A DNA stretch of 64,000 nucleotides, from IMG/VR virus record IMGVR_UViG_3300042892_003674. One strand, 5' to 3'. The stretch is from a virus. Taxonomy: Duplodnaviria; Heunggongvirae; Uroviricota; Caudoviricetes. Below the pieces are notes generated by a model. The model saw only the letters and a program-made list of their open reading frames with translations, made no database searches and was not told where the DNA came from. The translations under genes were made by a program, and so were the position numbers. Shown here one piece after another: positions 9,558 through 58,340 of this stretch (within the stretch, counting starts at the first letter, position 1; every line of letters starts with the position of its first letter).

Positions 9558-9574
9558 ATTTTAATATATAGTTT
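9558..9574 (+). promoter_or_regulatory. Upstream motif TTTTAATATATAGTTTATG, an exact 17-mer shared with the sequence upstream of 38240(-) and 46641(+).
   Basis: Ends at the ATG of ORF 9575. Confidence 0.5.
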
Positions 9575-11248
9575 ATGAAATACTTAAAATTATATGAAGG
9601 GTTTGAATCTGATAGAGTTAGTGCAATACTTTCATTTCTAAATAAAAAGATAAAGAATGAGTATAACACTCAAGATTTTTTAAAAATATTAAAAAAACTT
9701 GCAGATAAATTTGATTTCCCTCTAAGTACTTTAAGTGATAAAGAAATACAATACTTACCAGTAAATAAAGCGTTGTCTGTTGGTAAAGGTGAAGAAGCAA
9801 TGAATCCATCTGGTACTTACTGTATTAAGTATTGGTTTTCATTGGAAAAAGGATATTTATGTAGTACTGGAACTGGAAATAAGACTATGGATTATAATAA
9901 GTATAATTCTTATGGTTCTTATAGAATGTCAAATGAAGAAGGATTAGATCAATCTCACTTAGCTTACTTAGCTAGAGAATATAAAATAGGTGGTATTATT
10001 ACTCCAGCTAGATTAGGAGATTTAACAACTGGTGATAAAGTAGTAATGGTTTGTGGTGATGATTTTAATGGAGATCCTGCTTATTTAACTTTTGGAGAAA
10101 TATATGGTGATAATAGAAGAAATGGTGATGATGTTGAATATTACTTTTATCAAAATGATCATGAGGGTACTGATCCTGGTTCAACTAGAAATAATATCGT
10201 ATTACCAGATAGATATAATCTTTATGCGGGTAATGCTGCTTATCAATATTCTTGGTCATTAGGAAGTGCAGAAGATCCATCAGATGATCATTGTATGATG
10301 CATAAAGTAATACTAGATGATAAACCTCTAAGGTTTAGAGACGAAGATTTAGATAAGATGAATAAGACAGAAGAATCTGTTTGGGATTTTAATTTACCAT
10401 TAGATGGAACAACTTTGGAAGAATGGAATGGTAGAAAGACTCAAATTTTTAATAGAGTGAGTAAGGAAGCAAATTTTGCAATTGTTCTTTTTCTTGATGA
10501 TATAATAATTAAAAATGTTGATGATACTAAATCTGATATTATGAAAAGAAGAAAGTCACTTAAAAAGGGTGCATTGGCTTTAAAGAAACCAGAAGATATT
10601 AGAAAAGAAAATGTTGAGAGGTATCTAACTACTTTATTTACAAAATTAGGAATAGAAAAAGATAAACAAGAATTTAAAAATCTCAACTCGGTTGTTCTAT
10701 CATCAATTATTGGAGATTATTTTATAATTGCTCTTTATAATAGTAGTGCTTATATTGATAGATTATCAGACTTTATTACATTTTTGTATAGACTAATGTC
10801 AGAAAGTGATAACTCATATAATTTTGAAAAAACTTATGATTTATTTAAAACTATTAAGAAAAGACGTTTAAAACAAACTACTGCTTACTTTAATGGTATT
10901 AAAACTATTAAAGATACTGATAATCAAAATGCAGAAAGGATGTCTGATATAATTGACAGAATAACTAATATAGGTCAAATTTTATCAAATTCAATTAAAA
11001 ATAGAGATATAGAAACTATTGAAGATCTTAAATCAGTACAAGTTAGATTAGCATCATTATATGAATTAGTACAAGATGATATTTTTATACTTTCTAGAAA
11101 TACTAAAAATATTCTTATAAACTTAGATGGTGATACTTCAGCATTAAAACTAATTATGAGTAGATTAAGATATAGTGAAGAAGAGTATAATAGTGATGTT
11201 AAAAGATTAGATAAACTTGAAAAAGTATTTAAAGATCTTTTAAGATAG
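9575..11248 (+). CDS. Hypothetical protein; member of the N-terminal MKYLK..F.E signature family.
   Basis: 557 aa; N-terminus MKYLKLYEGFESDR. Confidence 0.8.
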   Translation: MKYLKLYEGFESDRVSAILSFLNKKIKNEYNTQDFLKILKKLADKFDFPLSTLSDKEIQYLPVNKALSVGKGEEAMNPSGTYCIKYWFSLEKGYLCSTGTGNKTMDYNKYNSYGSYRMSNEEGLDQSHLAYLAREYKIGGIITPARLGDLTTGDKVVMVCGDDFNGDPAYLTFGEIYGDNRRNGDDVEYYFYQNDHEGTDPGSTRNNIVLPDRYNLYAGNAAYQYSWSLGSAEDPSDDHCMMHKVILDDKPLRFRDEDLDKMNKTEESVWDFNLPLDGTTLEEWNGRKTQIFNRVSKEANFAIVLFLDDIIIKNVDDTKSDIMKRRKSLKKGALALKKPEDIRKENVERYLTTLFTKLGIEKDKQEFKNLNSVVLSSIIGDYFIIALYNSSAYIDRLSDFITFLYRLMSESDNSYNFEKTYDLFKTIKKRRLKQTTAYFNGIKTIKDTDNQNAERMSDIIDRITNIGQILSNSIKNRDIETIEDLKSVQVRLASLYELVQDDIFILSRNTKNILINLDGDTSALKLIMSRLRYSEEEYNSDVKRLDKLEKVFKDLLR

Positions 11249-11593
11249 TAAATATAGATCATGTTGTCTTGCTTCTAACTCTGTCAAAAGATAAACACAT
11301 TCTCTTCTTAGATCCTTTAATTTTAAAAAGTCTGCGGTATTTTTAGTTTTATTTAATTGTGAATTAAGATTATCAATTTCAATTGTTATTAAATTCTTCA
11401 TTAAATTCATTTCCTTACTAACCTCTTCTTTTAAATCAAGTGCTAATGATTTAAAATATGGATTTGCCATGATAACACCTTTATAATTATTAGAACTAAA
11501 GTTCTTCATAAGTCTTTTGAGTGTATCAATGGCTTGTTCCTCTGTTGTTGATAGATGTAGCTTATCGAGATATTCTAATAAGGTCAATTTCAT
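11240..11593 (-). CDS. Hypothetical coiled-coil protein.
   Basis: 117 aa. Confidence 0.6.
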   Translation of the reverse strand: MKLTLLEYLDKLHLSTTEEQAIDTLKRLMKNFSSNNYKGVIMANPYFKSLALDLKEEVSKEMNLMKNLITIEIDNLNSQLNKTKNTADFLKLKDLRRECVYLLTELEARQHDLYLLS

Positions 11594-11596
11594 ACA

Positions 11597-12028
11597 TTAT
11601 ATATTTCTTTGCATCTCTCTGGTAAGGTCTCTTTCTTTGATAGTTTCACGCTTATCCCAAGTTTTCTTACCTTTAGCAACTGCTATTTTAATTTTAATTC
11701 TATTATTCTTAACAAACATACCAAGTGGAATTGCGGTTATACCTTTGTCTTCCAATTTTCGTTTAATTCGAGTAATTTCTTTTTTATTTAAAAGAAGTTT
11801 TTTATCACGATTTTCTTCGTGTTTATCTAAAGTATGTGCAGACTTATATGCAGCAACTTTTAGATTTTTTATCCAAACTTCATTATCTTTTATATAAATG
11901 AAGGCATCAACCATGGTAACATTACCCATTCTAACGGACTTTACCTCACTTCCAACCAGTATAATACCACAGTCAAATTCTTCTATAAAAGTATATTCGT
12001 AACGGGCTCTTCTATTTAATGCTATCAT
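11597..12028 (-). CDS. smpB: SsrA-binding protein SmpB.
   Basis: Strong SmpB signature, including RRARYEYTFIEEFDCGIILVGSEVKS and IAVAKGKKTWDKRETIKERD. Confidence 0.9.
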   Translation of the reverse strand: MIALNRRARYEYTFIEEFDCGIILVGSEVKSVRMGNVTMVDAFIYIKDNEVWIKNLKVAAYKSAHTLDKHEENRDKKLLLNKKEITRIKRKLEDKGITAIPLGMFVKNNRIKIKIAVAKGKKTWDKRETIKERDLTREMQRNI

Positions 12029-12587
12029 ATTTTATAGTTTTGTGAGAAGATGATTCTCTGTTCTTAATAACTTGTATTACTTTATTATCACTTTGTTGAC
12101 TTATAACCACTACCAAATCTGAATAATATAAAGGTGTCGAACCACCCATAAAAGCATCAATCATATTATTATCTCTATTTAGGCCATTAGATTGTAGTGG
12201 ACAAGTAAGTATCAGTTTAATATCATTTATATCCTTACCATTTCTACTATCTCTTAAACAATCTCTTATATCGTAGATAGTATTTTTTATTATACCTGCT
12301 CGGTTTATATCTTCATTAGTAAATTTTCTTTGTTCAATATAAGAATTTCTTATATCATTTATATCTAATAATAGGTAATCGATTTTCTCTTCTTCATTTA
12401 AAACTTGATCAATTTTCATATCTCTAAGAATTGACTTCACAGAAAAAGATGAACTTAGATCTATTTTCTTGGTTCCCCCAAGATTAGAAATAATTTCATC
12501 TTTAATTCTTTCATCTGAAAATCGATAACCAATTAAGGTTGTCTCTGTTTTACTTATTAGATCATATAAATAATCTATATTTTCCAT
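12012..12587 (-). CDS. Hypothetical protein.
   Basis: 191 aa. Confidence 0.65.
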   Translation of the reverse strand: MENIDYLYDLISKTETTLIGYRFSDERIKDEIISNLGGTKKIDLSSSFSVKSILRDMKIDQVLNEEEKIDYLLLDINDIRNSYIEQRKFTNEDINRAGIIKNTIYDIRDCLRDSRNGKDINDIKLILTCPLQSNGLNRDNNMIDAFMGGSTPLYYSDLVVVISQQSDNKVIQVIKNRESSSHKTIKYDSIK

Positions 12588-12907
12588 TAGTTTAAGTATT
12601 GCTCAACAAGTTCAGACAATTTTTCTTTAGTTGTCATACCAACACTTCTATCTACAATTTCTCCGTCTTTATAAACCAAGATTGTAGGAATGTTTCTGAT
12701 ACCTAACTCAGCAACTTTTTCACCATTTGGTGTTGCATCTAATTTACCAACTGATACTCTTCCTTGGAAATCAACTGAAAATTGATCTACAATTGGTGCA
12801 ATTTGACGACATGGTCCACACCAAGTTGCCCATATATCAACTAAAACAACTCCTTCTTGTGTAAACTCATTATAGTTACTTTCTGATAATTCTGTTATAA
12901 ATCCCAT
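12587..12907 (-). CDS. trxA: Thioredoxin.
   Basis: WCGPC active site, 106 aa. Confidence 0.9.
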   Translation of the reverse strand: MGFITELSESNYNEFTQEGVVLVDIWATWCGPCRQIAPIVDQFSVDFQGRVSVGKLDATPNGEKVAELGIRNIPTILVYKDGEIVDRSVGMTTKEKLSELVEQYLN

Positions 12908-12961
12908 AATTTTTATTTAGTTTTTATTTATATTATATTTTACTGAAAAGTTTTAAATTGG

Positions 12962-14182
12962 TTAGTGTTCACTGTCCTTTATTTTAGATAATACCGCTTG
13001 AACCCTTGTATTATGTACCTCATCAACAATTTCTTTTCTTACTGAAAGTTCATAAAGTAAAGCGGTTGTATCATCAATCTCTTGTCCTGGTTCAATAGTA
13101 TGTTTTTCTAATACTGAAAAAGCAATTGTTGGATCTTCTTTATATAGTTCCAATAATGATTTTAATATTGTAACTTGTTCAGTTAGTTTATAACCTCTTA
13201 GATTAAGAATTGTCTTTGGTAAAAACTTAATTGTTTTTGAAAGTAATTTCATATCTTCTAAATCAACACCACCATCTACATAATCTTCATTTATAAATAA
13301 AGGTCTCAATTGATTCCATATATCCACCAATTCCGGTTTCATATAAATGTTTCTTAGATAAAATAAGAAATCGTCACCTTTATGAATTGCAAGTAGATTA
13401 TTATCTAATAATACCTCTTTTTTAGTTTTTAAAGTCCATAGATTTACATCTTTGTCATATGTCGTTTTGACGTGTGTCATACAATCTAAATCTTGTTCTA
13501 TTGTAAAATAGTTTTCAAGTATCTTATGATTGTTAAACATATTAAAATATCTATCTTGAAATCTAACTTTATAAACATCTTGAAGTTGACGAGATAAGAC
13601 CCCTTGAATAATCTCTAATTCAAATAAGTCTAAATCAACTTTTAGTTCTTCTGATTTCTTTACAATTCTAATTGCCGTATGACACGGTGTTTTCAAATTA
13701 GTTATCTGTAATTTACCTTTATTTAAGAACTTCTCAAATTCTGGTGTCCAATAAAACTTATCTTCTTCAATTGAATAACCAATTGCGGTACAATTTATAT
13801 CAAATGATTTGATAATGATTTCTGGATTATGAGTATTTGATTTATAACTAACGTAGTTGAATATACCTTCTGTAGTTGATTCACAAATAGAATAATAGTT
13901 TTTGGCTCTATCAATAAATCTTAGTCCAGAATAATCATCATACCAGACATTTTCTTCATCTTCTTTAAATGAATAAAGGTATTCTCTTCTATCTTCGTTA
14001 TAGTTTTCTAAGAGTCCATCAAACAAAAAAACATCAATATCATTGATGATTGCTTTTGTTCCAGAAACCTCTTCCCAGATAAGATTTGAAATAGAACCTC
14101 CTGCAATAAATCCTCTTTTAGGTAATCCCCATTGTGATTTTATTTTATCAAGAGCTCTTTTTGCTAACTGTTCAACGTTCAT
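12962..14182 (-). CDS. Putative Pol-beta-superfamily nucleotidyltransferase. Possibilities include a CCA-adding or tRNA-repair enzyme or a cGAS/CD-NTase-like enzyme; this is unresolved.
   Basis: 406 aa; N-terminal GGS...(22 aa)...DIDVF (GS-DxD-like) motif. Confidence 0.7.
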   Translation of the reverse strand: MNVEQLAKRALDKIKSQWGLPKRGFIAGGSISNLIWEEVSGTKAIINDIDVFLFDGLLENYNEDRREYLYSFKEDEENVWYDDYSGLRFIDRAKNYYSICESTTEGIFNYVSYKSNTHNPEIIIKSFDINCTAIGYSIEEDKFYWTPEFEKFLNKGKLQITNLKTPCHTAIRIVKKSEELKVDLDLFELEIIQGVLSRQLQDVYKVRFQDRYFNMFNNHKILENYFTIEQDLDCMTHVKTTYDKDVNLWTLKTKKEVLLDNNLLAIHKGDDFLFYLRNIYMKPELVDIWNQLRPLFINEDYVDGGVDLEDMKLLSKTIKFLPKTILNLRGYKLTEQVTILKSLLELYKEDPTIAFSVLEKHTIEPGQEIDDTTALLYELSVRKEIVDEVHNTRVQAVLSKIKDSEH

Positions 14183-14322: not shown

Positions 14323-14925
14323 TTAGTCTAAATACATTTCATCTATTTGTTCAAACTCTTTCCTAGATTGTTCCATCAAAATCTGACGACCATTTCTAAT
14401 TTGAGATTTTATTGTAGATAGATTCTTTCCTAAAGTATCTGCAATGTCTTTGTATTGCATTCTTTCTATCTCTCTCATTATAATAACTGTCTTATACGGC
14501 TCTTTTAACTCGTCGATATGTTTTTTCATTACATCTGCTTTTTGTGTGAAAACATCATAGATAGCTTCATTACTTTCAGTTTCTTGTATGAAATCTTTTA
14601 AAGTAGTTCCTTCATCATCAAACTCAATGTCTAATGATATGTTTCTATTTTCTAGTTTTTTATCTTGTAAAGATAAGTTTTTTGCGATTGTGAATAACCA
14701 CGTTGAGAATTGTGATTTTTCTTTTTGATACATTTCTATTTTTTCCAGAGCTATCATAAATGAGTCTGTCGAAATATCTTCTGCTTTTTGTACATCATTA
14801 CAAATTCTTGATGTAAAGTAGATTAGTTTTGGGTAATACTTTTGGTAAAGTGTTGCGAAGTCTTTACCTGTTCTTTCTTTAAAAATTTTCTCTTGTTCAG
14901 AGAATGGGGTTTTGCTTAATTCCAT
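14323..14925 (-). CDS. Sigma-70 family (ECF-like) RNA polymerase sigma factor.
   Basis: Region 2 (STWLFTIAKNLSLQDKK) and region 4 HTH (YKDIADTLGKNLSTIKSQIRNGRQIL), 200 aa. Confidence 0.85.
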   Translation of the reverse strand: MELSKTPFSEQEKIFKERTGKDFATLYQKYYPKLIYFTSRICNDVQKAEDISTDSFMIALEKIEMYQKEKSQFSTWLFTIAKNLSLQDKKLENRNISLDIEFDDEGTTLKDFIQETESNEAIYDVFTQKADVMKKHIDELKEPYKTVIIMREIERMQYKDIADTLGKNLSTIKSQIRNGRQILMEQSRKEFEQIDEMYLD

Positions 14926-14927
14926 AG

Positions 14928-14994
14928 ATTGCTTTTGATTTTTCTTTTTGACATGCTGTCAATTGCTTTTGATTGATTTCTTTTGATTGATTTT
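14928..14994 (-). promoter_or_regulatory. Regulatory region upstream of the sigma gene: palindrome TTGACAtgcTGTCAA flanked by nested direct repeats.
   Basis: ATTGCTTTTGATT appears twice (14928-14940 and 14962-14974), CTTTTGATTGATTTT appears twice (14966-14980 and 14980-14994), and the palindrome lies at 14948-14962. Confidence 0.45.
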
Positions 14995-15035
14995 GTGCTT
15001 GTAATTATTCTAATTGCCGTAATATTATTATATGA

Positions 15036-15053
15036 TATATATATTAAAAGTTG
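15036..15053 (-). promoter_or_regulatory. Conserved TTTTAATATATATA motif ~110 nt upstream of the sigma factor gene.
   Basis: Minus strand reads CTTTTAATATATATATCAT. Confidence 0.4.
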
Positions 15054-15457
15054 TCGGGTTCCTTGAGAATCTCTTTTATTTTTATATCTCTAATATACGA
15101 TTTACTTTCAAATAATTTTTCAATACGTTCATTCAATTCATTAGAATTAAATATAAGTTTACTAAACCTTTCTGCAGTAAATCCTTTACTTACAAGGTAT
15201 TCAAAACACATAGGTGCTAGTTCTTCTTCTGGTAGTAAATAGGATCTACCACCATGTAAGTCTAACTCATTCTCAAAAGTTCCAAACACAAGATAATAAA
15301 AATCTTCATCTTTATTGAAATCTTCCCAAAATGATACTATTTCACTATATAATGTATCTCCACAATGACCGTCGTCGTCATAATAATCACTGCCATCAAA
15401 TTCATCTAATGGTCCTAACCGACTGAGCATAAACCCTCTAATTTCTTTTAATGTCAT
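15044..15457 (-). CDS. Hypothetical acidic protein.
   Basis: 137 aa. Confidence 0.6.
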   Translation of the reverse strand: MTLKEIRGFMLSRLGPLDEFDGSDYYDDDGHCGDTLYSEIVSFWEDFNKDEDFYYLVFGTFENELDLHGGRSYLLPEEELAPMCFEYLVSKGFTAERFSKLIFNSNELNERIEKLFESKSYIRDIKIKEILKEPDNF

Positions 15458-15459
15458 AT

Positions 15460-15828: not shown

Positions 15829-15829
15829 A

Positions 15830-18547: not shown

Positions 18548-18616
18548 AATTATTATATTTTTACAAATATACGAATTTTATTTTAAATAACAAATAAACC
18601 ATTAAAGAAAACTGAC

Positions 18617-18632
18617 AATTTAATATATACTA
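18617..18632 (+). promoter_or_regulatory. Upstream motif CAATTTAATATATACT.
   Basis: 20 nt before the ATG at 18652. Confidence 0.4.
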
Positions 18633-26067: not shown

Positions 26068-26069
26068 AA

Positions 26070-26768
26070 ATGAGAAGAAGTTATATATCACCTGAATATC
26101 AGAATAGGGCAGTTTATGGAACATTAAATATGGTTGAGGAGAGTACTTTCTTTGGTGCTAAAATGCTTGAGGTAGAAGACTCTATAATAATAGATAATCA
26201 AGATATTATATATTATCAAAGAACTAATGGAGAGCAGTTAGATGTTTCTGTTGAAACATCATTAGACTCGTATGTTTATTCACCAGGTGGTAATAATGGA
26301 GATAAGTTTAAAAATCATACCTTAGTCATTGATACTACACAACCAAAATTTCAACTAGATAATAATACTAGATGGATACTAACTATTGATCTAAAAACAA
26401 TACTTACTAATTATTTATTTGCAACACTTAAAAAGTATAGAACTTTTGAAGGTGTTAAGAATGATATGACAATGTTTAATGATGTGAACGTTGCAGTGAC
26501 TAGTTATGTACGTTCAAATGTTTTAGATAGATATAAGTATAAAAGTGTGGAACTTTATGTAAGATACCAAGATTTAAGAAATCAGAACTTACTTAGATAT
26601 AATAATACGTGGTCAACTAATATAATAGATCCTACTTATAAACTAATTAAGATACAAACTGAAACAGAGTTTGATCAATCTTCAATTAAAATAATGTTTA
26701 ATCAAGAAAAACCAAGTTCTTCTTATAAATTTGACTATTACTTTAACATTTTATTTGAAAAAATATAA
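26070..26768 (+). CDS. Hypothetical protein.
   Basis: 232 aa, tightly packed after the previous CDS. Confidence 0.7.
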   Translation: MRRSYISPEYQNRAVYGTLNMVEESTFFGAKMLEVEDSIIIDNQDIIYYQRTNGEQLDVSVETSLDSYVYSPGGNNGDKFKNHTLVIDTTQPKFQLDNNTRWILTIDLKTILTNYLFATLKKYRTFEGVKNDMTMFNDVNVAVTSYVRSNVLDRYKYKSVELYVRYQDLRNQNLLRYNNTWSTNIIDPTYKLIKIQTETEFDQSSIKIMFNQEKPSSSYKFDYYFNILFEKI

Positions 26769-26784: not shown

Positions 26785-26800
26785 ACTTATAATATATAGT
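26785..26800 (+). promoter_or_regulatory. Upstream motif ACTTATAATATATAGT.
   Basis: Ends at the ATG at 26801. Confidence 0.4.
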
Positions 26801-27217: not shown

Positions 27218-28306
27218 ATGACAAACGAAATTTTAAACCCAGAAGTAGGAAACCCAAACTTTGAACTTTTATTTGAAGAAAAAAGTTACAGAAAGGGTAA
27301 GAATATGAGTGATAAAGACTTAGATGCTCTTTATAGCTCTATTAAATTAGAAATACCACAAGTAGGTAATGTGGTTAGATCTAGTTACCAAGGTATTATG
27401 GCAAATCAGTTTGTATTTAGCGTTGACGGATTCAAAGATGATGTTAGAGTTGAAGACAAACCAAATGAGGCAAAGTACCTTAAAAATTGCAACACTGGAG
27501 ATGAGGTTGATGTTTTAATTACCGAGATAAATCACGGTCAATATTTCATCAAAGGAAGTATAGCTTCTTTATATGAGTCAAGAGCTCACGAAAACCTTAA
27601 ATCTTTAGAGGAAGGAGAATCAGTAACTGCTTATGTAAGATCACTTAACCCAGCAGGTTACGATGTTGAAATCACAAATGGAGGAGTAACTCTTCCAGGA
27701 TTTATGCCAAATACCTTAGCTGGTATCAACAAACTTTACGACCCAACTTCAATCGTTGGTGATACGTTTCAAGTAATGATTGAGTCTTTCTCAGAACATG
27801 AAGGAACTTATATCGTAAGTCGTAGAAAGTATCTACAAACATTGATTCCAGAAGAAATTGGTAATCTTGAGTTTAACACCTTATATGGTGGTAGAGTAAC
27901 TGGAACAACACCGTTTGGTATCTTTGTTGAGTTCAACGAGTGCTTAACTGGTATGATTCACAAAGCTAACGTGACTGAGGAGTGGCAAAACAGAATCTCC
28001 GAAATTAAACCAGGACAAGAGATTGAGTTCTATATTAAAGAAATCATCAAGGAGAAAATTATCCTTACTCAAGTCTTGAGAGAAACACTTTGGGATAACA
28101 TCAAAAACGGTCAAGTTATTGATGGTAGAGTGAAAGATGTTAAACAATTTGGAACTTTAGTAATCTTAGATGATGAAACAGTTGGACTAATACACACTTC
28201 AGAAATGGAGAAATTAGGCAAAAAGTTTGTATCTGGACAAGACATCAAAGTAAAAGTTCTTTCTGTAGATCGTCAAAGTCGTAAGATTTTCTTAACGATT
28301 GGATAA
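27218..28306 (+). CDS. Ribosomal protein S1-like multi-S1-domain RNA-binding protein.
   Basis: 362 aa with about 4-5 consecutive S1/OB-like modules, for example GDEVDVLITEI...G, GESVTAYVRSLNPAGYDVEI, GRVTGTTPFGIFVEF and GQVIDGRVKDVKQFGTLVIL...GQDIKVKVLSVDRQSRKIFLT. Confidence 0.7.
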   Translation: MTNEILNPEVGNPNFELLFEEKSYRKGKNMSDKDLDALYSSIKLEIPQVGNVVRSSYQGIMANQFVFSVDGFKDDVRVEDKPNEAKYLKNCNTGDEVDVLITEINHGQYFIKGSIASLYESRAHENLKSLEEGESVTAYVRSLNPAGYDVEITNGGVTLPGFMPNTLAGINKLYDPTSIVGDTFQVMIESFSEHEGTYIVSRRKYLQTLIPEEIGNLEFNTLYGGRVTGTTPFGIFVEFNECLTGMIHKANVTEEWQNRISEIKPGQEIEFYIKEIIKEKIILTQVLRETLWDNIKNGQVIDGRVKDVKQFGTLVILDDETVGLIHTSEMEKLGKKFVSGQDIKVKVLSVDRQSRKIFLTIG

Positions 28307-28345
28307 TTTAAAAACGACCCATTTTTAAATGAAAGAACAAAATGA

Positions 28346-28372
28346 ACCCTAGAGAAATCTAGGGTTTTTTTA
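28346..28372 (+). terminator. Intrinsic terminator.
   Basis: aaCCCTAGAgaaaTCTAGGGttttttt. Confidence 0.7.
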
Positions 28373-28386
28373 TTTAATATATAATC
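28371..28386 (+). promoter_or_regulatory. Upstream motif TATTTAATATATAATC directly after the terminator.
   Basis: 22 nt before the ATG at 28409. Confidence 0.45.
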
Positions 28387-28819: not shown

Positions 28820-28825
28820 AAATAA

Positions 28826-28852
28826 AAAAAAGCTATCAAATGATAGCTTTTT
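28826..28852. terminator. Bidirectional intrinsic terminator between convergent genes.
   Basis: aaaaAGCTATcaaatgATAGCTtttt with a flanking A-run and T-run. Confidence 0.6.
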
Positions 28853-29041
28853 CTTTTTAGTATATATTCCAATTTTTTATATGTATAACTCCATTTGAAT
28901 CTATTGTAGAACCTTTATCCTCAATCTCTTCTTCAAAGAAATCGGGTTTAAGAACATCATCAATTGTTTTATCTGATAACTCTATGTCTGCTACAAATGC
29001 TTCAAAAAGTTTTAAATACTTCACTTATTATATATTATTTT

Positions 29042-30976: not shown

Positions 30977-30993
30977 TGTATATATTAAAATTT
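30977..30993 (-). promoter_or_regulatory. Upstream motif TTTTAATATATACAATC immediately before the ATG at 30973.
   Basis: Minus strand reads AAATTTTAATATATACAATCATG. Confidence 0.45.
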
Positions 30994-33716: not shown

Positions 33717-34132
33717 TAGTCTAAAATTGTATTAGTTGGATCAGACATTTTACCTGATTTATTTTTTTGTGTAATTTTTATTGCAGAAGATGGATTATCT
33801 TTTAATCCGTTTTGCATCCATTCTTTGAATTCTAAATTCTCAAGGTAGTCTTGTGCGGTTGGAATGAATCTCATTCCAAAATCTTCTAATATATGTTGTT
33901 CACATATATCTTTTACAGATACAATTTTATCATCTGAGTTTGTAATTGTGTATCCGAATATAGGTATCATAACCTCATGTATCCAAAAGCCATGGTGTGT
34001 TAAAGCTCTATGTCTATTATCGGATAAATAAGCTTTAGAACAATCCATTTTTATATGTATTGTTAAGTAGTCTTCTGGTTGTCCACCAAATCTACGTGCC
34101 GAAGATACTGAATGTATGTGTGCGTTTGCCAT
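33716..34132 (-). CDS. Hypothetical protein.
   Basis: 138 aa. Confidence 0.65.
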   Translation of the reverse strand: MANAHIHSVSSARRFGGQPEDYLTIHIKMDCSKAYLSDNRHRALTHHGFWIHEVMIPIFGYTITNSDDKIVSVKDICEQHILEDFGMRFIPTAQDYLENLEFKEWMQNGLKDNPSSAIKITQKNKSGKMSDPTNTILD

Positions 34133-34579
34133 TTAATATTCTATTTTTTCTAATGTTTCGTGTAATTGTTCATCTGATAACTTATTAAGTACAAAAGTAA
34201 GTAATTGTTCTGAGTTACCAAAATTTGTTTGAATAGATTGTTTAATAAAATCTAAATAATCTTCTCTTGTACCTATTCCTAACTTTAACATATTGGCCTC
34301 TCTTTGCCATTGTGTACCACCATTGATTTCAAAGTCAGTGATATAATCTCCAGAAAATGATAAATTATATTTTATTTTATCATGTACTTCCTTAGTTGAT
34401 ATACCTGTTGGTATATCAAACTCAACAGGTACATAAGGCCTTTGACAAATTCTATCAACTATATCTTTAGAATCTCTTAAACCTAGGTCACAAAGTTCTT
34501 TTATGTTTTTAACAAATTGTAACTTATTATTACAATCATTTACTAACTTTATTTTTATTACATTCTTCATTATACACAA
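34133..34579 (-). CDS. Protein with a ribosomal L7/L12 C-terminal-domain-like N-terminus.
   Basis: 148 aa. KLQFVKNIKELCDLGLRDSKDIVD resembles [23 protein letters not shown] of the L7/L12 CTD. Confidence 0.55.
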   Translation of the reverse strand: MCIMKNVIKIKLVNDCNNKLQFVKNIKELCDLGLRDSKDIVDRICQRPYVPVEFDIPTGISTKEVHDKIKYNLSFSGDYITDFEINGGTQWQREANMLKLGIGTREDYLDFIKQSIQTNFGNSEQLLTFVLNKLSDEQLHETLEKIEY

Positions 34580-35217
34580 AGTATTAAACTTTCTTTATAT
34601 AAATATTCATCAATGACTTTTTGATCAATTTGATTTACTTGTTTTACCAAACTTGGTAATTTTGTAGGTTGTAAACCAATGTTTCCTACTACTTCACCAT
34701 TATTATAATTATTTATAATATAGTCGGCCATTTGATTTTTCTGAAGAGGATCCATTTCAGTTTTCATTCTATCTCTAATGTTTAGTAGACCTTCATTAGT
34801 TTGATAACGAGCTCTTTTTAATCTATCTCCCTCTGGTGAGAATACGGTAATACTTAAATCAACTTTTCTATCCCACTCTCTTTCAAATAAAAGTGATGAA
34901 TGGAATATTGTATAGATTGCACCTTTTTGTTCATATCTATCACAGAACTTGTTATAAGCATTAAAAAGATCATCTTCAACAATATCGAGAACTTTATCAA
35001 AAGTGGATTTCTTTAATCTACGAAGATCTAATTGATGATTTACAAATAGGTCTGAACCTATTTCTTTTCTCACTTCACTTAATAGTTCATGATTATGATT
35101 TAATATAAACTTTAAAATAAGGTCTCCATCAAAAACAGGTATGCCTATTCTCTTGAATACCTCAACAGTTGTTTTTTTTCCTGAGTATCTACTACCTGAT
35201 AATCCTAATCTAATCAT
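34570..35217 (-). CDS. P-loop kinase, dephospho-CoA kinase (CoaE)-like.
   Basis: 215 aa; N-terminal IGLSGSRYSGKKT Walker A followed by the DGD of CoaE-type kinases. Confidence 0.6.
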   Translation of the reverse strand: MIRLGLSGSRYSGKKTTVEVFKRIGIPVFDGDLILKFILNHNHELLSEVRKEIGSDLFVNHQLDLRRLKKSTFDKVLDIVEDDLFNAYNKFCDRYEQKGAIYTIFHSSLLFEREWDRKVDLSITVFSPEGDRLKRARYQTNEGLLNIRDRMKTEMDPLQKNQMADYIINNYNNGEVVGNIGLQPTKLPSLVKQVNQIDQKVIDEYLYKESLILCV

Positions 35218-35321
35218 ATTTCGTTTTTATATTTTGAAATACAAATATACAACTATTTTTTAGCAAAACAAAACTAAACTAATAAATTTTTATCAATATA
35301 AATAACTAAAACAATTAAGAT

Positions 35322-36435: not shown

Positions 36436-36466
36436 AAACCCACTTAAAAAAGTGGGTTTTTTGTTA
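36436..36466 (+). terminator. Intrinsic terminator.
   Basis: aaaCCCACTTaaaaAAGTGGGttttttg. Confidence 0.75.
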
Positions 36467-36470: not shown

Positions 36471-36490
36471 TTTTTAATATATAATAAAAA
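36471..36490 (+). promoter_or_regulatory. Upstream motif TTTTTAATATATAATAAAAA directly after the terminator.
   Basis: 14 nt before the ATG at 36504. Confidence 0.45.
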
Positions 36491-38240: not shown

Positions 38241-38258
38241 AAACTATATATTAAATAT
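38241..38258 (-). promoter_or_regulatory. Upstream motif TTTAATATATAGTTTATG, the exact 17-mer.
   Basis: Minus strand reads ATATTTAATATATAGTTT followed by the ATG at 38240. Confidence 0.5.
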
Positions 38259-39517: not shown

Positions 39518-39533
39518 AAATTTATATATAGAT
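39518..39533 (+). promoter_or_regulatory. Upstream motif AAATTTATATATAGAT.
   Basis: 18 nt before the ATG at 39551. Confidence 0.35.
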
Positions 39534-44951: not shown

Positions 44952-46601
44952 ATGACACCAATAATATTAGAATGGTCAAACGCATTTGACGTAGATAATA
45001 ATATAACCGGATATGAGTTATCGTATAAAACAACTGGATCTTGGATATCCTTACCATTTATAACATCCTCACAAACAAGTGGGAGTTATAGTTTCACACC
45101 AACACAACAAGTTACTCATTCATTTAGAATAAGAGTTCGTGATTCATTTTCTGCTGTTAGTTCATATAAATATTTTAATTATGTAATTAGTGCAGAATAT
45201 CAAATATCAAGTGTTTATTATAATAATACTTTCGATGAAAATAATGACGTACGTGATACATGTCAGATTGTATCAGATCCAACAAATACTTACACAGATA
45301 TTTATCTTAGTAGTGCACCACCTGCTGTTGGAGTTATTGTTTATACAGATCAACAACAAACAAACGATTATTTTGGACATAATGAATATTGGATAATTAA
45401 ATCACCATCTGGATTACACTATTCATGTTGGATAGATGATTTTGGCGTTATCCAGGCGGTATATTTATGTGGTGCAAATAGTGCACAGATTTCGGCAAAT
45501 GCACCAAACTGGTTAGGTCGTTTGGCTGCATCACAAACCTGTGGATTAGCACTTACTGGTACTGTATATTGGGATTCACAGTATTCTTTTGCGGTTGGTA
45601 CAATATTATATACAGATCCATTATTCACGACACCATTAAACGGTCAATCAAGATTCTTTCGTATGGAATATACTAATTCACTTGGGTTGACTTTAACAAA
45701 GATTGTAAAAGTTGGTAATCTAACAAACCCATCGGTTATAGTTTCTATGGATAATGTATCTACTGTGTGTTCTGCACTTTTTATGGCATATAGAACTACA
45801 GGAACGAATTTCAATACTAGTTTGGGTAACTCAATCGATGGAACTTCTTTATGTCAATTATCCCCAAATACAAAATGTTATATAAGGGTAGCAGATCCAA
45901 GTATTATTAGTACTGGTGATATAGTATACACTGTTAGTGGAACGAACGCGGGACCAACCTTTAGTGGAGGTAACCAATATTATAATATGTATATAGCTTT
46001 TGCTGCTAATGGACCAAATACTAATGCAATTTGTCAGGTTGATGATTATGGTGTAATAACAGTGCAAGGATACTGTAGTGGTAGTTCTGCTGGTTGTTGT
46101 TTATTACCCGGTACAAATATAACCTTATTTGATGGTTCTACTATTAGTATAGAAGATATAATTGGTGGTGAATCATTACTAACTTATAATATTGAAGAAT
46201 CAACTTTTGAAGAAGGCTTAGTTACCAATATATTTACTCCAATACATAATGATATTGTAAAACTTGTAATCGGAGATAATACAATAGATTGTACATCAAC
46301 ACATCCTTTCTGGTCAGTAAATAAGAAAGAATGGGTTTCTTTAAATCCTAAAGAAACTATGCTTACTATGAATATAAATATCGAACATTTAGAAATTGGT
46401 GATATTTTATTAAATGAGAGAAATGAAGAAGTTATATTAGATGATATTATACAAATAGATAGTGAAGATATAGTAACTTATGATATTTCAGTAGAACCAA
46501 ATCACACATATTATGCTAATAGTATATTAGTTCATAATAAAACTGATGAAAATGGGAATGACATAATATTTAACCCTATTAATAATTTTACTAACCCTTA
46601 A
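44952..46601 (+). CDS. FN3-like structural protein with a C-terminal Hint (intein-like/BIL) domain.
   Basis: 549 aa. N-terminal fibronectin-III-like fold (ILEWSNAFDVDNNITGYELSYKTTGSW). C-terminal Hint domain, described in the next feature. Confidence 0.9.
   Translation: MTPIILEWSNAFDVDNNITGYELSYKTTGSWISLPFITSSQTSGSYSFTPTQQVTHSFRIRVRDSFSAVSSYKYFNYVISAEYQISSVYYNNTFDENNDVRDTCQIVSDPTNTYTDIYLSSAPPAVGVIVYTDQQQTNDYFGHNEYWIIKSPSGLHYSCWIDDFGVIQAVYLCGANSAQISANAPNWLGRLAASQTCGLALTGTVYWDSQYSFAVGTILYTDPLFTTPLNGQSRFFRMEYTNSLGLTLTKIVKVGNLTNPSVIVSMDNVSTVCSALFMAYRTTGTNFNTSLGNSIDGTSLCQLSPNTKCYIRVADPSIISTGDIVYTVSGTNAGPTFSGGNQYYNMYIAFAANGPNTNAICQVDDYGVITVQGYCSGSSAGCCLLPGTNITLFDGSTISIEDIIGGESLLTYNIEESTFEEGLVTNIFTPIHNDIVKLVIGDNTIDCTSTHPFWSVNKKEWVSLNPKETMLTMNINIEHLEIGDILLNERNEEVILDDIIQIDSEDIVTYDISVEPNHTYYANSILVHNKTDENGNDIIFNPINNFTNP
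46098..46538 (+). other. Hint domain (mini-intein / bacterial intein-like, no endonuclease).
   Basis: Block A CLLPGTNITLFDGSTISIEDI, block B TSTHPFW (TxxH), C-terminal blocks VTYDISVEPNHTYYANSILVHN. The residue after HN is Lys, so canonical splicing is unlikely and only cleavage is expected. Confidence 0.75.
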
Positions 46602-46624: not shown

Positions 46625-46640
46625 ATTTAATATATAGTTT
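46625..46640 (+). promoter_or_regulatory. Upstream motif AATTTAATATATAGTTTATG, the exact 17-mer.
   Basis: Ends at the ATG at 46641. Confidence 0.5.
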
Positions 46641-51233: not shown

Positions 51234-51247
51234 AACTAAAATATAAT

Positions 51248-52671: not shown

Positions 52672-52801
52672 ATTTTTATTAATTTATTTATTTTTATTAC
52701 TCTTAAAAACTTTCTATATTCTATCCAATTCATTCCTGTAGGACCAGGTTGACCTTGTGGTCCTTGTGCACCAAATGTTATATTATTATTCATATATTAG
52801 T

Positions 52802-54499: not shown

Positions 54500-54546
54500 T
54501 TAATATAATAATTTCTTATTTATATAGTAAATGTTATATAAGTTGA

Positions 54547-55109: not shown

Positions 55110-55335
55110 CAGTATCGGTGAAAACGATTTGTATTTTATCTACATCAACAAATTCCTTTGCTTCTCCAGAAAACTCATTTACCATTACGTCTTTTTTATA
55201 GATAACATCAATTCCAGGTTCTTCACCTAAAAATCTACGCATATCCTCTTTAATTTGTGATATTTTCCAATCATCATTTACAAAGTCAATTTTTGAAATA
55301 TATTCTCTAATTGAAAATTCTTTAAGTGAACTCAT
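55063..55335 (-). CDS. Hypothetical small protein.
   Basis: 90 aa. Confidence 0.5.
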   Translation of the reverse strand: MSSLKEFSIREYISKIDFVNDDWKISQIKEDMRRFLGEEPGIDVIYKKDVMVNEFSGEAKEFVDVDKIQIVFTDTDDKFKKIEFIVGQKL

Positions 55336-55368
55336 ACTTATATTTTATTTTTTATATCTTATTTATTA

Positions 55369-55701
55369 CTAAAAGTTGGGTTTATCTAAGTAGTATGTAT
55401 TATGTTCAGTAATAAACTCAAAGTTGTCGTGTAAAGTTTGACAATATCCGTTAAATGAGTGAACGTCTTCTTGTGTTAGGTTGAACCATTCACCTCTAAC
55501 TCTTTTACTTCTAAATATTCTATGAAGACTAGATTCTATTTTAGTTCCCCATTTTGATGTAAATGAGTCAACCAGATAAAGATCGGCTGCATTTCCAGTC
55601 TTAAACTCTTTAAGACGTTTTTCAATCTTTCTTTTAGTGAAACCTATCTTATGTAGTTTTTCACCTTCTATATCCGCACAAATTAAATAAATGTTTGTCA
55701 T
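55369..55701 (-). CDS. T5orf172 (GIY-YIG-like) domain protein.
   Basis: 110 aa; IYLI...KIGFTKRKIEKRLKEF...RGEWF, matching the T5orf172/MUG113 pattern that ends in GEWF. Confidence 0.7.
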   Translation of the reverse strand: MTNIYLICADIEGEKLHKIGFTKRKIEKRLKEFKTGNAADLYLVDSFTSKWGTKIESSLHRIFRSKRVRGEWFNLTQEDVHSFNGYCQTLHDNFEFITEHNTYYLDKPNF

Positions 55702-55712
55702 AGAAGTATATA

Positions 55713-56117
55713 TTACTTCTTAACAACTCTCTTTTTTACTTTTTTTGGAGATTTAACTACAGGCTTTTTATAGATCTCAACTAAGGTATCACCATAATTT
55801 ATCTTTTCATAGTAATACTTAACAGATACAAAATTATGTCTTCTATCTATTTCTAACCGACCAGTTACTTTAATATTTCTTATATTTACTATATAAGGAC
55901 CATTTTTAAGTTTTTTATAGTTTTTTAGAATAGTATCACACACCTCTCTTCTTATAAGAGGTCTTGATTTATAATTGGAATAAACAACCATTGAGTCTGA
56001 TCCTCTAACCCTACTTATTGCTTCCATACCATCATAACCATAGTTATAGTATTCTACTCTTTGTTGTGAATAAACAAAAGTGGTTATAAATAGTAATAGT
56101 ATTTTAATTATTTTCAT
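55713..56117 (-). CDS. Secreted protein with a bacterial-type signal peptide and a basic C-terminal tail.
   Basis: 134 aa; MKIIKILLLFITTFVYSQQ signal peptide; C-terminus KKPVVKSPKKVKKRVVKK. Confidence 0.65.
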   Translation of the reverse strand: MKIIKILLLFITTFVYSQQRVEYYNYGYDGMEAISRVRGSDSMVVYSNYKSRPLIRREVCDTILKNYKKLKNGPYIVNIRNIKVTGRLEIDRRHNFVSVKYYYEKINYGDTLVEIYKKPVVKSPKKVKKRVVKK

Positions 56118-56296
56118 ATTAGACTAAAGTCATGCTCTTGTACATAAACTCCAGGACTAATATACATATTCTTTTCTGTAAGACCTAATAATCTTCTTAA
56201 TTTTTTTAAACGATTATGATGTCGAACACTCTTTTTTAATCTTTCATCATAGTTCAGATTTGTATATGGATCATTATGTGGTATATATCTACTCAT
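56114..56296 (-). CDS. Hypothetical small basic protein.
   Basis: 60 aa. Confidence 0.4.
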   Translation of the reverse strand: MSRYIPHNDPYTNLNYDERLKKSVRHHNRLKKLRRLLGLTEKNMYISPGVYVQEHDFSLI

Positions 56297-56618
56297 TTAC
56301 TTTAAATATATTATTGATTTTTCTTTTTCTTGTTTTGTGTTTTGTATCACCATATTGATAATCCATATAATGTAAAGTGCCTAATGGTGCAGACATTGGT
56401 TGAACTGATACTAAATCTAATCCTACAGTTCGTGCGGCTACTTTCATTGCGATTGGTAACATATTAGTAAAACTTGACGAAGTGCTTGTTGTAGTTTGTG
56501 ATTGAAGACCAGCGTATTGTGACATCCAGGTTGCTTTAGATCCAGTTAGGCCCATATTTCCAATAAGATTGTCCCATTTATCTTGAGTATCTTTTCTGGT
56601 ATTTTTTAAATTTTTCAT
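56289..56618 (-). CDS. Hypothetical protein.
   Basis: 109 aa. Confidence 0.55.
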   Translation of the reverse strand: MKNLKNTRKDTQDKWDNLIGNMGLTGSKATWMSQYAGLQSQTTTSTSSSFTNMLPIAMKVAARTVGLDLVSVQPMSAPLGTLHYMDYQYGDTKHKTRKRKINNIFKVNE

Positions 56619-56654
56619 AATAAAAATTTGTTTATTATAGAAAGATTTATTATT

Positions 56655-56942
56655 TTAGTTTAGAGTTTTGTATTCTTCTTTAAGAGCATCTTCTAAATGT
56701 GCTTCTTGTTCTTCATCTAATTGTTTATTAAACTCTTTTTTATACCAAGAGATTAGTTTATGTACAATGATTTCTTCTGCCTCACCATTACTGATTGCTT
56801 TATAATCACCTTCTTCAATCCATTCTTTTACCTCATCAGCAAGCATTTCAGAAACAGTCTCTTCTGTGAATTGTTCTTTAATCTTCACAACTGCATGATG
56901 TTTATCAAAAGTATTCTCGTTATATTTTTTTAAATATCTCAT
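56655..56942 (-). CDS. Hypothetical protein; N-terminal signature family.
   Basis: 95 aa; MRYLKKYNENTFDKHH. Confidence 0.6.
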   Translation of the reverse strand: MRYLKKYNENTFDKHHAVVKIKEQFTEETVSEMLADEVKEWIEEGDYKAISNGEAEEIIVHKLISWYKKEFNKQLDEEQEAHLEDALKEEYKTLN

Positions 56943-57367
56943 ATCTCATTATTATATTTTACATAAATGCTTATTCCCGAAATCTCTTCTATAGTATGTG
57001 ATTTTAATTCCTCTATTGTAAATGGAGTACTTTCATAATTAAGATCCCATACTAATATAATTTGTTCATCATCCAATCTATCTTCTAGATTATAAGGTCC
57101 AAAAGCAGGAACTAATTTATATTTTTTATTTAAAATCTCTATAAATGGAATTAAATGATCTTTAACATCAATCCATCTAATATTTTGATGATTATCTGTA
57201 TGAATCTCTATTGCTACACAACTATCCTCGTAAGTATATACAGAAAGTTTAATATTATCATCATCTAATAAGTAAGCTAAATACATTTCACTAACTTCTT
57301 TTAGTTCATTTATAAAGTCTTCAATATAAAGATTCTCAAATAATTTATAAAACTTCAAATATTTCAT
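56939..57367 (-). CDS. Hypothetical protein; N-terminal signature family.
   Basis: 142 aa; MKYLKFYKLFENLYIEDF. Confidence 0.65.
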   Translation of the reverse strand: MKYLKFYKLFENLYIEDFINELKEVSEMYLAYLLDDDNIKLSVYTYEDSCVAIEIHTDNHQNIRWIDVKDHLIPFIEILNKKYKLVPAFGPYNLEDRLDDEQIILVWDLNYESTPFTIEELKSHTIEEISGISIYVKYNNEI

Positions 57368-58320
57368 TACTTTAACTTAATATGTACATATAACCAAAAT
57401 GAGTGTGGTTTAACACTAATCAAAACTTTTTGACCCCATTTTTTAGTCATAACCCAAGAAGTGAAATTGTTTTTAATATTCAAAAGTTCACCTTCATCTA
57501 ATTTACCATTATCCCATTTACCAATACCATAGTATCCAAATGAAATTACTTTATCAGAAATTGTTGGTTTTGATTCTTTTTCAAAATATCCAGGTTTAAA
57601 ATCTTTCATATCAGTTTTAATCTTACCAAGAAGTAACATATCGGTATGTGATATATTTACAATTTCTTTTTTCAAAGAAGCTGCTGATTTAGATTCAATA
57701 GTTACTAACCATCTTACAACTGAAGGAGTTAGTTTGAATTGTCCAATTGGATTCAATTTATCATAAGTAACACCATATTCAAATGTTCCATCACATTTAA
57801 TACCAAAGTAAAGACCACATTCATTTTTACCATAATCAATCATATCTAAATATCTTGTCAATGATTTGAATCTACTAAAGACAGATTTAACATCTGTTGA
57901 AGATAACTCTGGATAATAATAAAATAATAAGAAGTGAGAAGGACATTTTTCAATATTTGAAGTTTTGTCTTTTTGACCTAATGCAGTCAATGATTTTAGA
58001 AATGAATTAAAGATTGATTTACCTGCAATTGTAATTTCTGCAGACTCATTAATTTCAGTTGAGACTAAAACCTCTGGATCTTTCTCCTCGATTCCATTTT
58101 GTAGATAAGTATCAATTTGTGATTTAATATCATCTTGTTCAGATTGTTCTAACATATTTATAGCATTAGACAGTCTTATAGTAGAAGGGATATCCCCTAA
58201 AAATCGATTTACTATGTTTTTAACATATTCATCATCATACAAAGACTCAACCCACTCTCCAAGTGAATTGAAGTCTTGTAATTCAGATTCTTTAATAAAC
58301 TCTAAATACTTTTTTATCAT
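57367..58320 (-). CDS. Hypothetical protein; N-terminal signature family.
   Basis: 317 aa; MIKKYLEFIKESELQDF. Confidence 0.75.
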   Translation of the reverse strand: MIKKYLEFIKESELQDFNSLGEWVESLYDDEYVKNIVNRFLGDIPSTIRLSNAINMLEQSEQDDIKSQIDTYLQNGIEEKDPEVLVSTEINESAEITIAGKSIFNSFLKSLTALGQKDKTSNIEKCPSHFLLFYYYPELSSTDVKSVFSRFKSLTRYLDMIDYGKNECGLYFGIKCDGTFEYGVTYDKLNPIGQFKLTPSVVRWLVTIESKSAASLKKEIVNISHTDMLLLGKIKTDMKDFKPGYFEKESKPTISDKVISFGYYGIGKWDNGKLDEGELLNIKNNFTSWVMTKKWGQKVLISVKPHSFWLYVHIKLK

Positions 58321-58323
58321 AGA

Positions 58324-58340
58324 GTATATATTAAAATTAT
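58324..58340 (-). promoter_or_regulatory. Upstream motif TTTTAATATATACTCT before the ATG at 58320.
   Basis: Minus strand reads ATAATTTTAATATATACTCTATG. Confidence 0.45.

Follow-up and report, generated by a model that had tools for sequence, protein, structure and literature searches.

The stretch analyzed here (the window) comprises 64,000 nucleotides of a Caudoviricetes virus (IMG/VR record IMGVR_UViG_3300042892_003674), with a GC content of 26–34%. It contains 12 tRNA genes and encodes, among other products, a tyrosyl-tRNA synthetase (TyrRS), SmpB, thioredoxin, an NAD-dependent ligase, an S1-domain protein, DnaJ, Sir2, an SbcC-like protein, a 1275-aa multi-glycosyltransferase, a sigma factor of the extracytoplasmic function (ECF) type and several proteins of 1000–1800 aa with no function assigned. 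Many genes of the window, on both strands, are preceded by the motif TTTAATATATA, whose conserved core is the 9-mer TAATATATA and which is the subject of this work. The evidence presented below points to a phage-specific promoter element, two copies of which head small leader open reading frames (ORFs) located before tRNA arrays.

The nearest records are uncultured, unannotated phage genomes: LR745206 (634 kb), LR756502 (642 kb), LR756504 (636 kb) and LR756501 (735 kb). Within the Mahaphage clade they are the largest, with Bacteroidetes predicted as host, and no promoter motif was given in their original description (PMC7162821). The window is colinear in gene order with LR745206 and LR756502, with protein identities of 27–80%; these three sequences (hereafter, the three genomes) total 242 kb, of which ~92% is coding and ~8% non-coding. 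Further related loci amounting to 362 kb were taken from 36 IMG/VR contigs and from stretches of LR756504 and LR756501.

The presence of a conserved motif before many start codons on both strands, claimed in the initial annotation, was confirmed. Exact matches to TTTAATATATA number 11 in the window, compared to 1.06 expected from dinucleotide shuffles (shuffle maximum 6; 0 of 100 shuffles reached 11), and all 11 are intergenic and oriented toward the downstream gene. The 17-mer TTAATATATAGTTTATG, described earlier as occurring three times, is indeed found in three exact copies (zero expected), before the ATGs at 9575, 38240(−) and 46641. The earlier list of 13 sites needed correction, as 11 of them are exact matches but with coordinates displaced by 1–6 nt, whereas the remaining two are variants (26790–26798 has only the 9-mer core, and 39522–39530 reads TTATATATA), and two further sites, at 55707–55715(−) and 29029–29037(−), had been missed. 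The window contains the 9-mer core itself 15 times, in 14 cases in intergenic DNA; the corresponding figures are 28 of 33 in LR745206 and 19 of 23 in LR756502, so that 61 of the 71 copies in the three genomes fall within the small non-coding fraction. Enrichment over shuffled AT-rich sequence, whose absence would have spoken against the motif, persisted even when only intergenic DNA was shuffled, with 12 fully intergenic core copies compared to 1.17 expected (~10-fold; maximum of 5 in 300 shuffles). Within 40 nt upstream of starts, sense copies outnumbered antisense copies by 10:0 in the window and by 44:4 over the three genomes, the four antisense copies belonging to overlapping divergent pairs. 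An unbiased 7-mer enrichment in the 50-nt upstream regions placed ATATATA, TAATATA and AATATAT among the top five words. One-mismatch variants of the core were hardly enriched, with the exception of TTATATATA, and the element thus shows unusually little variation. Scanning IMG/VR generically for TTTAATATATANNNNATG was uninformative, the matches listed being mostly single chance matches, including giant-virus bins. The sole in-gene core copy of the window, at 26207–26215(−), lies antisense to the ORF at 26070–26768 and may be either a chance match or an antisense promoter.

The motif is also retained in relatives, where intergenic flanks can no longer be aligned and the proteins have diverged to 28–80% identity. 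The 9-mer was kept at the orthologous starts of the genes at 9575, 18652, 30973(−), 55701(−), 46641 and 39551. It precedes the ortholog of the 9575 gene in LR745206 and, in the form TAATATATAgttcATGaagtacttaaaa, in LR756504; the core is present before the LR756502 ortholog of the 46641 gene and, in both colinear relatives, before that of 55701(−); TAATATATA lies 4 nt before the ATG orthologous to 30973(−) in both; the 18652 orthologs have the motif at 21–22 nt in both; and the variant site of 39551 is conserved in LR745206. In the case of the 38240(−) unit, the motif directly precedes the ortholog of the 185-aa ORF in the relatives. The core at 26790–26798 was not conserved in LR745206 or LR756502. 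The motif recurs in LR756504 and LR756501, and in the 362 kb of further loci 94 of 111 distinct core copies were intergenic. No clear signal of it was detected in loci of Lak phages and crAss-like phages carrying distant homologues of the sigma factor. The sites found in the window are collected in Table 1 together with the other features discussed.

Table 1. Motif sites, host-type promoters, leader units and selected genes of the window (distances are to the start codon of the downstream ORF).
Feature	Position	Strand	Context
TTTAATATATA	9560-9570	+	4 nt before ATG 9575 (557-aa ORF, function unassigned); in exact 17-mer
TTTAATATATA	46626-46636	+	4 nt before ATG 46641 (1530-aa protein, PKD-like stretch); in exact 17-mer
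TTTAATATATA	38245-38255	-	4 nt before ATG 38240 (134-aa ORF, then 185-aa phosphohydrolase-like ORF); in exact 17-mer
TTTAATATATA	58325-58335	-	4 nt before ATG 58320 (317-aa ORF)
TTTAATATATA	30979-30989	-	5 nt before ATG 30973 (M28 peptidase-like ORF); adjoins terminator hairpin 31028-31004
Core TAATATATA	55707-55715	-	5 nt before ATG 55701 (110-aa ORF)
Core TAATATATA	26790-26798	+	2 nt before ATG 26801; spacing outlier
Core TAATATATA	29029-29037	-	4 nt before GTG of 55-codon ORF (VKYLKLFEAF...)
TTTAATATATA	18619-18629	+	22 nt before ATG 18652 (1068-aa and 1399-aa ORFs); divergent intergenic region
TTTAATATATA	28373-28383	+	25 nt before ATG 28409; adjoins terminator 28344-28367
TTTAATATATA	36473-36483	+	20 nt before ATG 36504; adjoins terminator 36436-36459
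TTTAATATATA	15038-15048	-	112 nt upstream of sigma-factor gene
TTTAATATATA	6591-6601	-	5 nt before ATG of Lys/Phe/His/Trp-rich leader ORF, first tRNA array
TTTAATATATA	5521-5531	-	6 nt before ATG of Ser/Arg-rich leader ORF heading tRNA-Arg, Ser, Ser
Variant TTATATATA	39522-39530	+	20 nt before ATG 39551 (1792-aa ORF)
Palindromic variant TTTTATATATAAAA	7453-7462	both	Serves 7482(+) and 7434(-), 19-20 nt from each ATG
Variant TAATATAAA	4902-4910	-	4 nt before ATG 4897
Host-type -7 box TATATTTG	18564-18571	-	Before NAD-ligase operon running on into sigma gene
Host-type -7 box TATATTTG	35242-35249	-	Before operon starting 35217(-)
Host-type promoter	9523-9530	-	Before YqeY/TyrRS operon
Host-type promoters	6902-6909, 6643-6650	-	TTTG-N19-TATATTTGTA class
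ECF-type sigma factor	14323-14925	-	200 aa, regions 2 and 4; candidate motif recogniser
Leader ORF MRTNFKHTSFSKSFKWFSHKFG...	6475-6585	-	36 codons; K/F/H/W 12 of first 21 residues, P=8e-6
Intrinsic terminator	6416-6445	-	Between leader ORF and tRNA-Lys 6402
Leader ORF MKTIITTSSSSSSRSSNLREVLLYS	5437-5514	-	25 codons; S+R 11/24 residues, P=3e-5
Intrinsic terminator	5391-5416	-	Before tRNA-Arg 5375; 5' arm may pair alternatively with leader 5448-5457
ORFs of TyrRS, SmpB, S1-domain protein and YqeY-like protein	7661-8914(-), 11597-12028(-), 27218-28306(+), 8914-9318(-)		

Alignment of the 61 intergenic sites of the three genomes showed a preference for T or A at the three positions before the core and nothing resembling a −35 partner: information did not exceed 0.26 bits at any position upstream of −3, and a search for a −35 or BRE-like partner yielded just weak A/purine preferences at −17 and −12. 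E. coli-type −35/−10 pairs were not enriched either (67 versus 85 expected, and 88 versus 84). The distance from the end of the core to the ATG is bimodal, being 4 nt at 20 sites, 2–9 nt at 29 and 17–25 nt at 15, with none at 10–16 nt; the further loci were again bimodal, with 16 sites at 4–7 nt and 29 at 15–24 nt. The hexamer TAATAT, corresponding to bases 1–6 of the core, accordingly ends 7 nt before the ATG in 20 of the 61 sites and 5–10 nt before it in 28. The fixed spacing of about 4–7 nt proposed initially thus describes about half of the sites, a second mode existing at 17–25 nt. In the ORFs with a close ATG no earlier start codon is possible, and ortholog alignments start at residue 1 or 2. 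As very short mRNA leaders translate poorly, the gap at 10–16 nt is to be expected. In the long-spacing class, positions +3 to +7 beyond the core are rich in A, which would allow a purine start there without fixing it.

The genomic setting of the sites also agrees with a promoter. Three copies immediately follow terminators made of a hairpin and a T-run (those adjoining 28344–28367, 36436–36459 and 31028–31004), and others occupy divergent intergenic regions, where a promoter must exist, some as palindromes for both strands. The variant before 39551 lies in such a palindromic divergent region, shared with 39471(−), and the 55-codon ORF behind the 29029–29037(−) site ends at a bidirectional terminator (28824–28855).

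A second promoter class, of the type used by Bacteroidota hosts, was found in the same genomes and is conserved in the relatives. It consists of TTTG, a spacer of ~19 nt and TAnnTTTG, nearly always TATATTTGTA. The box at 18564–18571(−) is conserved in both relatives, where it stands 4–6 nt from the ATG, and the promoter at 6643 stands in tandem with the phage motif, on its upstream side, ahead of the first tRNA array. The distance from these host-type promoters to the ATG is also bimodal (3–7 and 15–31 nt), and in the relatives it is often 3–7 nt. Since this class has the same spacing modes, the leaderless geometry extends beyond the motif and is a general habit of these phages. The presence of host-type promoters supports a Bacteroidota host. 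Compared to the Bacteroidota sigma-A promoter (TTTG at −33 and TAnnTTTG at −7), the motif shares the leading TA and the ATG spacing, but it has ATATA in place of TTTG and lacks the −33 TTTG, which sets the TAATATATA class apart from the host consensus. A reading of the motif as an archaeal or eukaryotic TATA box was also considered, since in the 17–25 nt class the ATG is ~25 nt from the centre of the box. It was rejected, as such a box cannot serve the 4-nt class and the bacterial host-type promoters share both spacing modes.

A natural candidate for recognizing the motif, already named in the initial annotation, is the sigma factor encoded at 14323–14925. The ORF is a genuine ECF-type sigma, although its link to the motif is circumstantial. 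It matches Pfam Sigma70_r2 and Sigma70_r4_2 and scores 68.1 bits with TIGR02937 (cutoff 42.9), its best subfamily being a Bacteroides expansion family, and it aligned full-length to the structures of SigW (5wuq, E 1.7e-15), SigH and SigE. With tblastn (E<1e-5), each relative genome showed only a single copy of this sigma. The distance from the upstream motif to the sigma gene is 112 nt in the window and 103 nt in LR745206, and the LR756502 copy of the motif is degenerate. In 12 further IMG/VR orthologs (48–98% identity), TAATATATA, TTATATATA or TAGATATATA lies 50–115 nt upstream, so that the motif or a one-step variant precedes the sigma gene at 50–115 nt in 15 of 15 genomes, an arrangement that fits autoregulation. 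No convincing terminator was found between the host-type ligase promoter and the sigma gene. The neighbouring ORFs at 12962–14182 and 15044–15457 matched no anti-sigma family, though anti-sigmas are often too diverse for detection. Between motif and gene, the long leader at 14926–15037(−) has conserved boxes that recur, ACGGCAAT / AAAGCAAT, of which one abuts the ATG; these boxes are present in all relatives (L001, L002, L215–L226) and suggest post-transcriptional or operator control of the sigma.

The units driven by the motif comprise large proteins with fn3, PKD or pentapeptide traces, the M28 peptidase-like gene, small ORFs, the sigma gene and both tRNA arrays. The large proteins with these traces look structural. 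Searches of PHROG, Pfam and PDB provided no function for most of the large motif-driven proteins, and an assignment of the units to early or late expression failed. Six motif-driven ORFs have similar N-termini: 9575 (MKYLKLYEGF), 58320(−) (MIKKYLEFIKE), 38240(−) (MRIRKFNESL), 36504 (MRYIKKFNESF), 28409 (MIIKKFENF) and 29024(−) (VKYLKLFEAF). No further BLAST similarity was detected. The shared N-terminus could be an N-terminal signal or reflect a constraint from leaderless translation.

Several known promoter systems provide terms of comparison. The late promoters of T4 (TATAAATA, depending on gp55, gp33 and gp45) consist of a single, highly conserved and phage-specific AT-rich element in the −10 region with no −35, and the analogy drawn earlier between them and the motif holds for this single-element, AT-rich design. 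It does not extend further, as the sequences differ, region 4 is present in the candidate sigma but absent from gp55, and T4 late mRNAs are not generally leaderless. A closer parallel is phage phiEco32, whose gp36 is a 214-aa sigma with sigma2-like and sigma4-like domains that reads middle and late promoters through a single AATGTA element centred at −11.5, with no −35 consensus, the early genes being served by host-type promoters (PMC12276001). Both systems have a two-domain phage sigma of ~200 aa and no −35, and (t)AATGTA(tA) resembles TAATATATA, in which AATATA differs by one base. The proteins themselves have no detectable similarity (BLASTP E 0.98 between gp36 and the 14323–14925 product); the sigma described here clearly belongs to the ECF family, the host phylum is Bacteroidota, and the 4-nt ATG spacing implies a centre nearer −9.5, ~2 nt closer, if transcription starts at the A of the ATG. 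In the Thermus phage phiYS40, a −10 motif for leaderless mRNAs is adjacent to ORFs. In Deinococcus, TANNNT located 6–7 bp before the ORF was shown experimentally to be sufficient for leaderless mRNA, without a −35 (PMC12340547). The TAATAT ending 7 nt before the ATG is of this kind, but the Deinococcus-Thermus element is degenerate and read by the primary host sigma, whereas a near-invariant 9-mer is found here in a Bacteroidota phage. The motif works like the promoters of phiEco32 and the late promoters of T4 but is a member of neither class. In the literature, nothing relevant was found on the motif, on megaphage promoters or on leaderless or late promoters of Bacteroides phages.

From these data we consider it likely that TAATATATA is the core of a phage-specific, single-element promoter of the −10 type that generates leaderless or short-leader mRNAs, with the 14323–14925 sigma as its likeliest reader, in a phage with a huge genome (~600 kb) of roughly 29% GC and Mahaphage-type relatives. 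The interpretation of the motif as a −10-like element with leaderless or near-leaderless mRNAs is thus supported by orientation, conservation, the lack of a −35 and geometry. In the model we propose, TAATATATA, usually after two or three T/A bases, would act without a −35 partner, TAATAT fitting the TAnnnT pattern of the −10 hexamers of the sigma-70 family and being followed by the trailing ATA. Transcription would start ~5 nt past the 9-mer, so that an ATG 4–7 nt downstream would give a leaderless mRNA or a leader of 1–3 nt, and one 17–25 nt downstream a leader of ~12–20 nt. Host sigma-A would transcribe an early operon from the ligase promoter and read into the ECF-type sigma gene; the phage sigma would then direct the host core RNA polymerase to the motif class and reinforce its own synthesis through the copy upstream of its gene. 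We infer the start position, the leaderless translation and the recognition by this particular sigma from sequence.

Several observations weigh against this model. ECF sigmas normally need an AAC-type −35 and a GC-containing (CGT-type) −10 at a fixed spacer of 16–17 nt, and we know of no AT-only −10 box for any of them; a motif made only of A and T and devoid of a −35 is hence atypical for an ECF sigma, all the more so as this one keeps region 4. Were the phiEco32 geometry to apply, with its element centred at −11.5, the start would come to lie 2 nt inside the ATG; a different geometry is therefore required here. In addition, the 26790 site is merely 2 nt from its ATG, the 26207 core copy is antisense inside a gene, and the genes served are functionally mixed, so that the label "late" is not justified.

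The first of these points is also what favours the main competing explanation, that the motif is a promoter read by some other factor, such as host sigma-A redirected by an appropriator, another phage sigma-like protein (for example a gp55/gp33-type pair) or a phage polymerase encoded outside the window. The absence of a −35 despite region 4, the AT-only sequence unlike known ECF −10 boxes, and the TAnnnT pattern and ATG spacing that TAATAT shares with the host −7 box TAnnTTTG are all in agreement with it, and the window covers only ~10% of the genome. However, TTTG, a part of the host consensus, is missing from the motif, the occurrence of the motif upstream of the sigma gene in every genome compared is as expected for an autoregulated ECF sigma, only a single copy of this sigma was detected per relative genome, and in phiEco32 a single element suffices for a two-domain sigma. 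We therefore regard a different reader as possible but unlikely.

It is more improbable still that the motif acts in RNA, either as a ribosome-recruiting element in place of a Shine-Dalgarno sequence or as an endonuclease processing site that yields leaderless mRNAs. Such a role would account for the spacing of exactly 4 nt at many sites and for the copies at 46626, 58325 and 55707, which lie inside co-directional gene runs; moreover, Bacteroidota make little use of Shine-Dalgarno pairing, and the phage encodes an S1-domain protein. Neither the 17–25 nt mode nor the 112 nt to the sigma ATG, however, fits a ribosome site, and the motif is found directly after terminators and in divergent regions without an upstream transcript, with palindromic copies serving both strands and with spacing modes shared by the host-type promoters. 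If the motif were the operator of a DNA-binding regulatory protein of the phage and not a core promoter, the near-invariance of the 9-mer would be accounted for, since bacterial −10 boxes typically vary more than regulator sites do, yet no other conserved promoter-like element accompanies the motif, E. coli-type −35/−10 pairs being no exception, and its ATG spacing is what a −10 box needs; we find this hard to credit. Finally, a chance origin in AT-rich intergenic DNA, conceivable given the low GC content, is refuted by the fact that no shuffle reached the observed count, by the 10:0 orientation and by conservation at orthologous positions. In summary, the initial observation was confirmed, and its interpretation is supported as far as sequence analysis goes.

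Two copies of the motif head leader ORFs that precede tRNA genes (Table 1). The first leader is rich in Lys, Phe, His and Trp, and the tRNAs that follow its strong terminator are, in order, Lys, Lys, Trp, Phe, His, Phe, Lys, His and Trp; the 5' arm of this terminator, CCGAACTT, is complementary to the leader segment 6521–6528. The second leader is rich in Ser and Arg and its terminator is followed by tRNAs for Arg, Ser and Ser. The first leader was found in 25 loci, with the motif 4–7 nt before its ATG in 24 of them. In the 23 of these loci that have downstream sequence, the following array was made up solely of Lys, Phe, His and Trp tRNAs in shuffled order, the sole exception among the 23 arrays being three Ser tRNAs in L202. 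The Arg/Ser unit follows the first array wherever the examined 1.7 kb reaches further. Loci with leader units include L082, L166, L178, L192 and L200. Every distinct copy of the first leader that was examined has a terminator, and a segment at leader codons 20–22 is complementary to the 5' arm of it, the pairing covarying between lineages (GTTCGG/CCGAAC, GAACTTGG/CCAAGTTC, ATTCGA/TCGAAT and GGTTCG/CGAACC). For the Ser/Arg leader, an alignment of eight sequences showed the terminator to be 97.7% paired with 3 compensatory pairs, and the putative antiterminator, located just upstream of the stop codon, to be 86% paired with 2 compensatory pairs; the tRNA-leader sequences aligned are few and related.

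These two leaders look like ribosome-mediated attenuators controlling tRNA arrays. As in the trp, his, thr and pheST attenuators, a short ORF rich in regulatory codons is combined with an intrinsic terminator and, putatively, with an alternative pairing as antiterminator, and the position of the proposed Ser/Arg antiterminator just before the stop codon resembles that of the trp leader. Unlike in those systems, the genes controlled would be tRNA genes instead of biosynthetic or synthetase genes, and the leader ORF, behind the phage motif, would itself be leaderless. As a caveat, the duplexes of single sequences were not significant compared to shuffles (P 0.03–0.3). Rfam models matched the region 5390–5531 over their full length but below threshold (Thr_leader, 24.7 bits, threshold 55; His_leader, 21.7 bits, threshold 49). 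A pattern scan for the Ser/Arg leader picked up, for the greater part, a conserved gene with no relation to it, only 6 of the 37 loci being true homologues. The attenuator pattern does not extend to every tRNA gene, as the single Cys, Met and suppressor tRNA genes of the relatives are not preceded by a leader rich in cognate codons. Literature searches on leader peptides before tRNA clusters yielded no account of tRNA genes controlled by such peptides. If the leaders do attenuate, the phage could sense the scarcity of charged tRNAs, caused for example by host tRNA depletion or by cleavage through anticodon nucleases, and would then transcribe replacement tRNAs; attenuation would in this way let it respond to tRNA depletion. 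The comprehensive version of this proposal, a −35-independent regulon of an ECF-like megaphage sigma with leaderless mRNAs, including leader peptides that attenuate tRNA arrays to sense a shortage of charged tRNAs, seems to us evenly balanced between right and wrong.

A third attenuator-like unit was observed outside the window, in LR745206 (L001, ~34970–35250) and LR756502 (L002, ~33920–34200). It has, in this order, a host-type box plus TAATATATA, a leader (MRALHTYKITIDLG / MKTLHTYKNVIDWM) and a terminator (CCCAGTCAAT...ATTGACTGGG), whose 5' arm also pairs with the last codons of the leader. Downstream there is a Lys/Arg-rich ORF of 65–67 aa, and in LR745206 also a gene that resembles by eye a class-II (HisRS-type) aminoacyl-tRNA synthetase. 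Two tRNA-like sequences of the window were not called by ARAGORN. The one at 5560–5690(−) has a 5' half (agtagctcaattggtagagc...) and a T-arm and 3' end (gtgggttcgagtcccac) split by an insert of tens of nucleotides, and may be an interrupted tRNA; the one at 5022–5106(−) has a long variable arm and scored 32 bits with a tRNA-Sec model.

Among the remaining genes of the window, those related to translation encode the tyrosyl-tRNA synthetase, SmpB, a protein with C-terminal S1 domains and a YqeY-like protein. No tmRNA was found in the window. The 549-aa ORF at 44952–46601(+), flanked by two giant ORFs, is fn3-like at its N-terminus and carries a C-terminal domain of the Hint/intein type.

Promoters of the kind described here, phage-specific and with a single element, are already known, and the present one stands out by how little it varies, by a leaderless geometry in a Bacteroidota system and by its presence across the largest phages known. 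Its Mahaphage relatives have the largest phage genomes known (634–735 kb), and these are uncultivated and unannotated. For them, the near-invariant 9-mer provides a handle for separating host-dependent from phage-dependent transcription units, for correcting start codons and for testing the phage sigma in vitro. Leaderless mRNAs are thought to be rare in Bacteroidota, and the motif suggests their heavy use in a Bacteroidota system. The putative tRNA attenuators are the more novel lead: if true, they would represent a new use of a classical mechanism and would bear on the question of why phages carry tRNA arrays.

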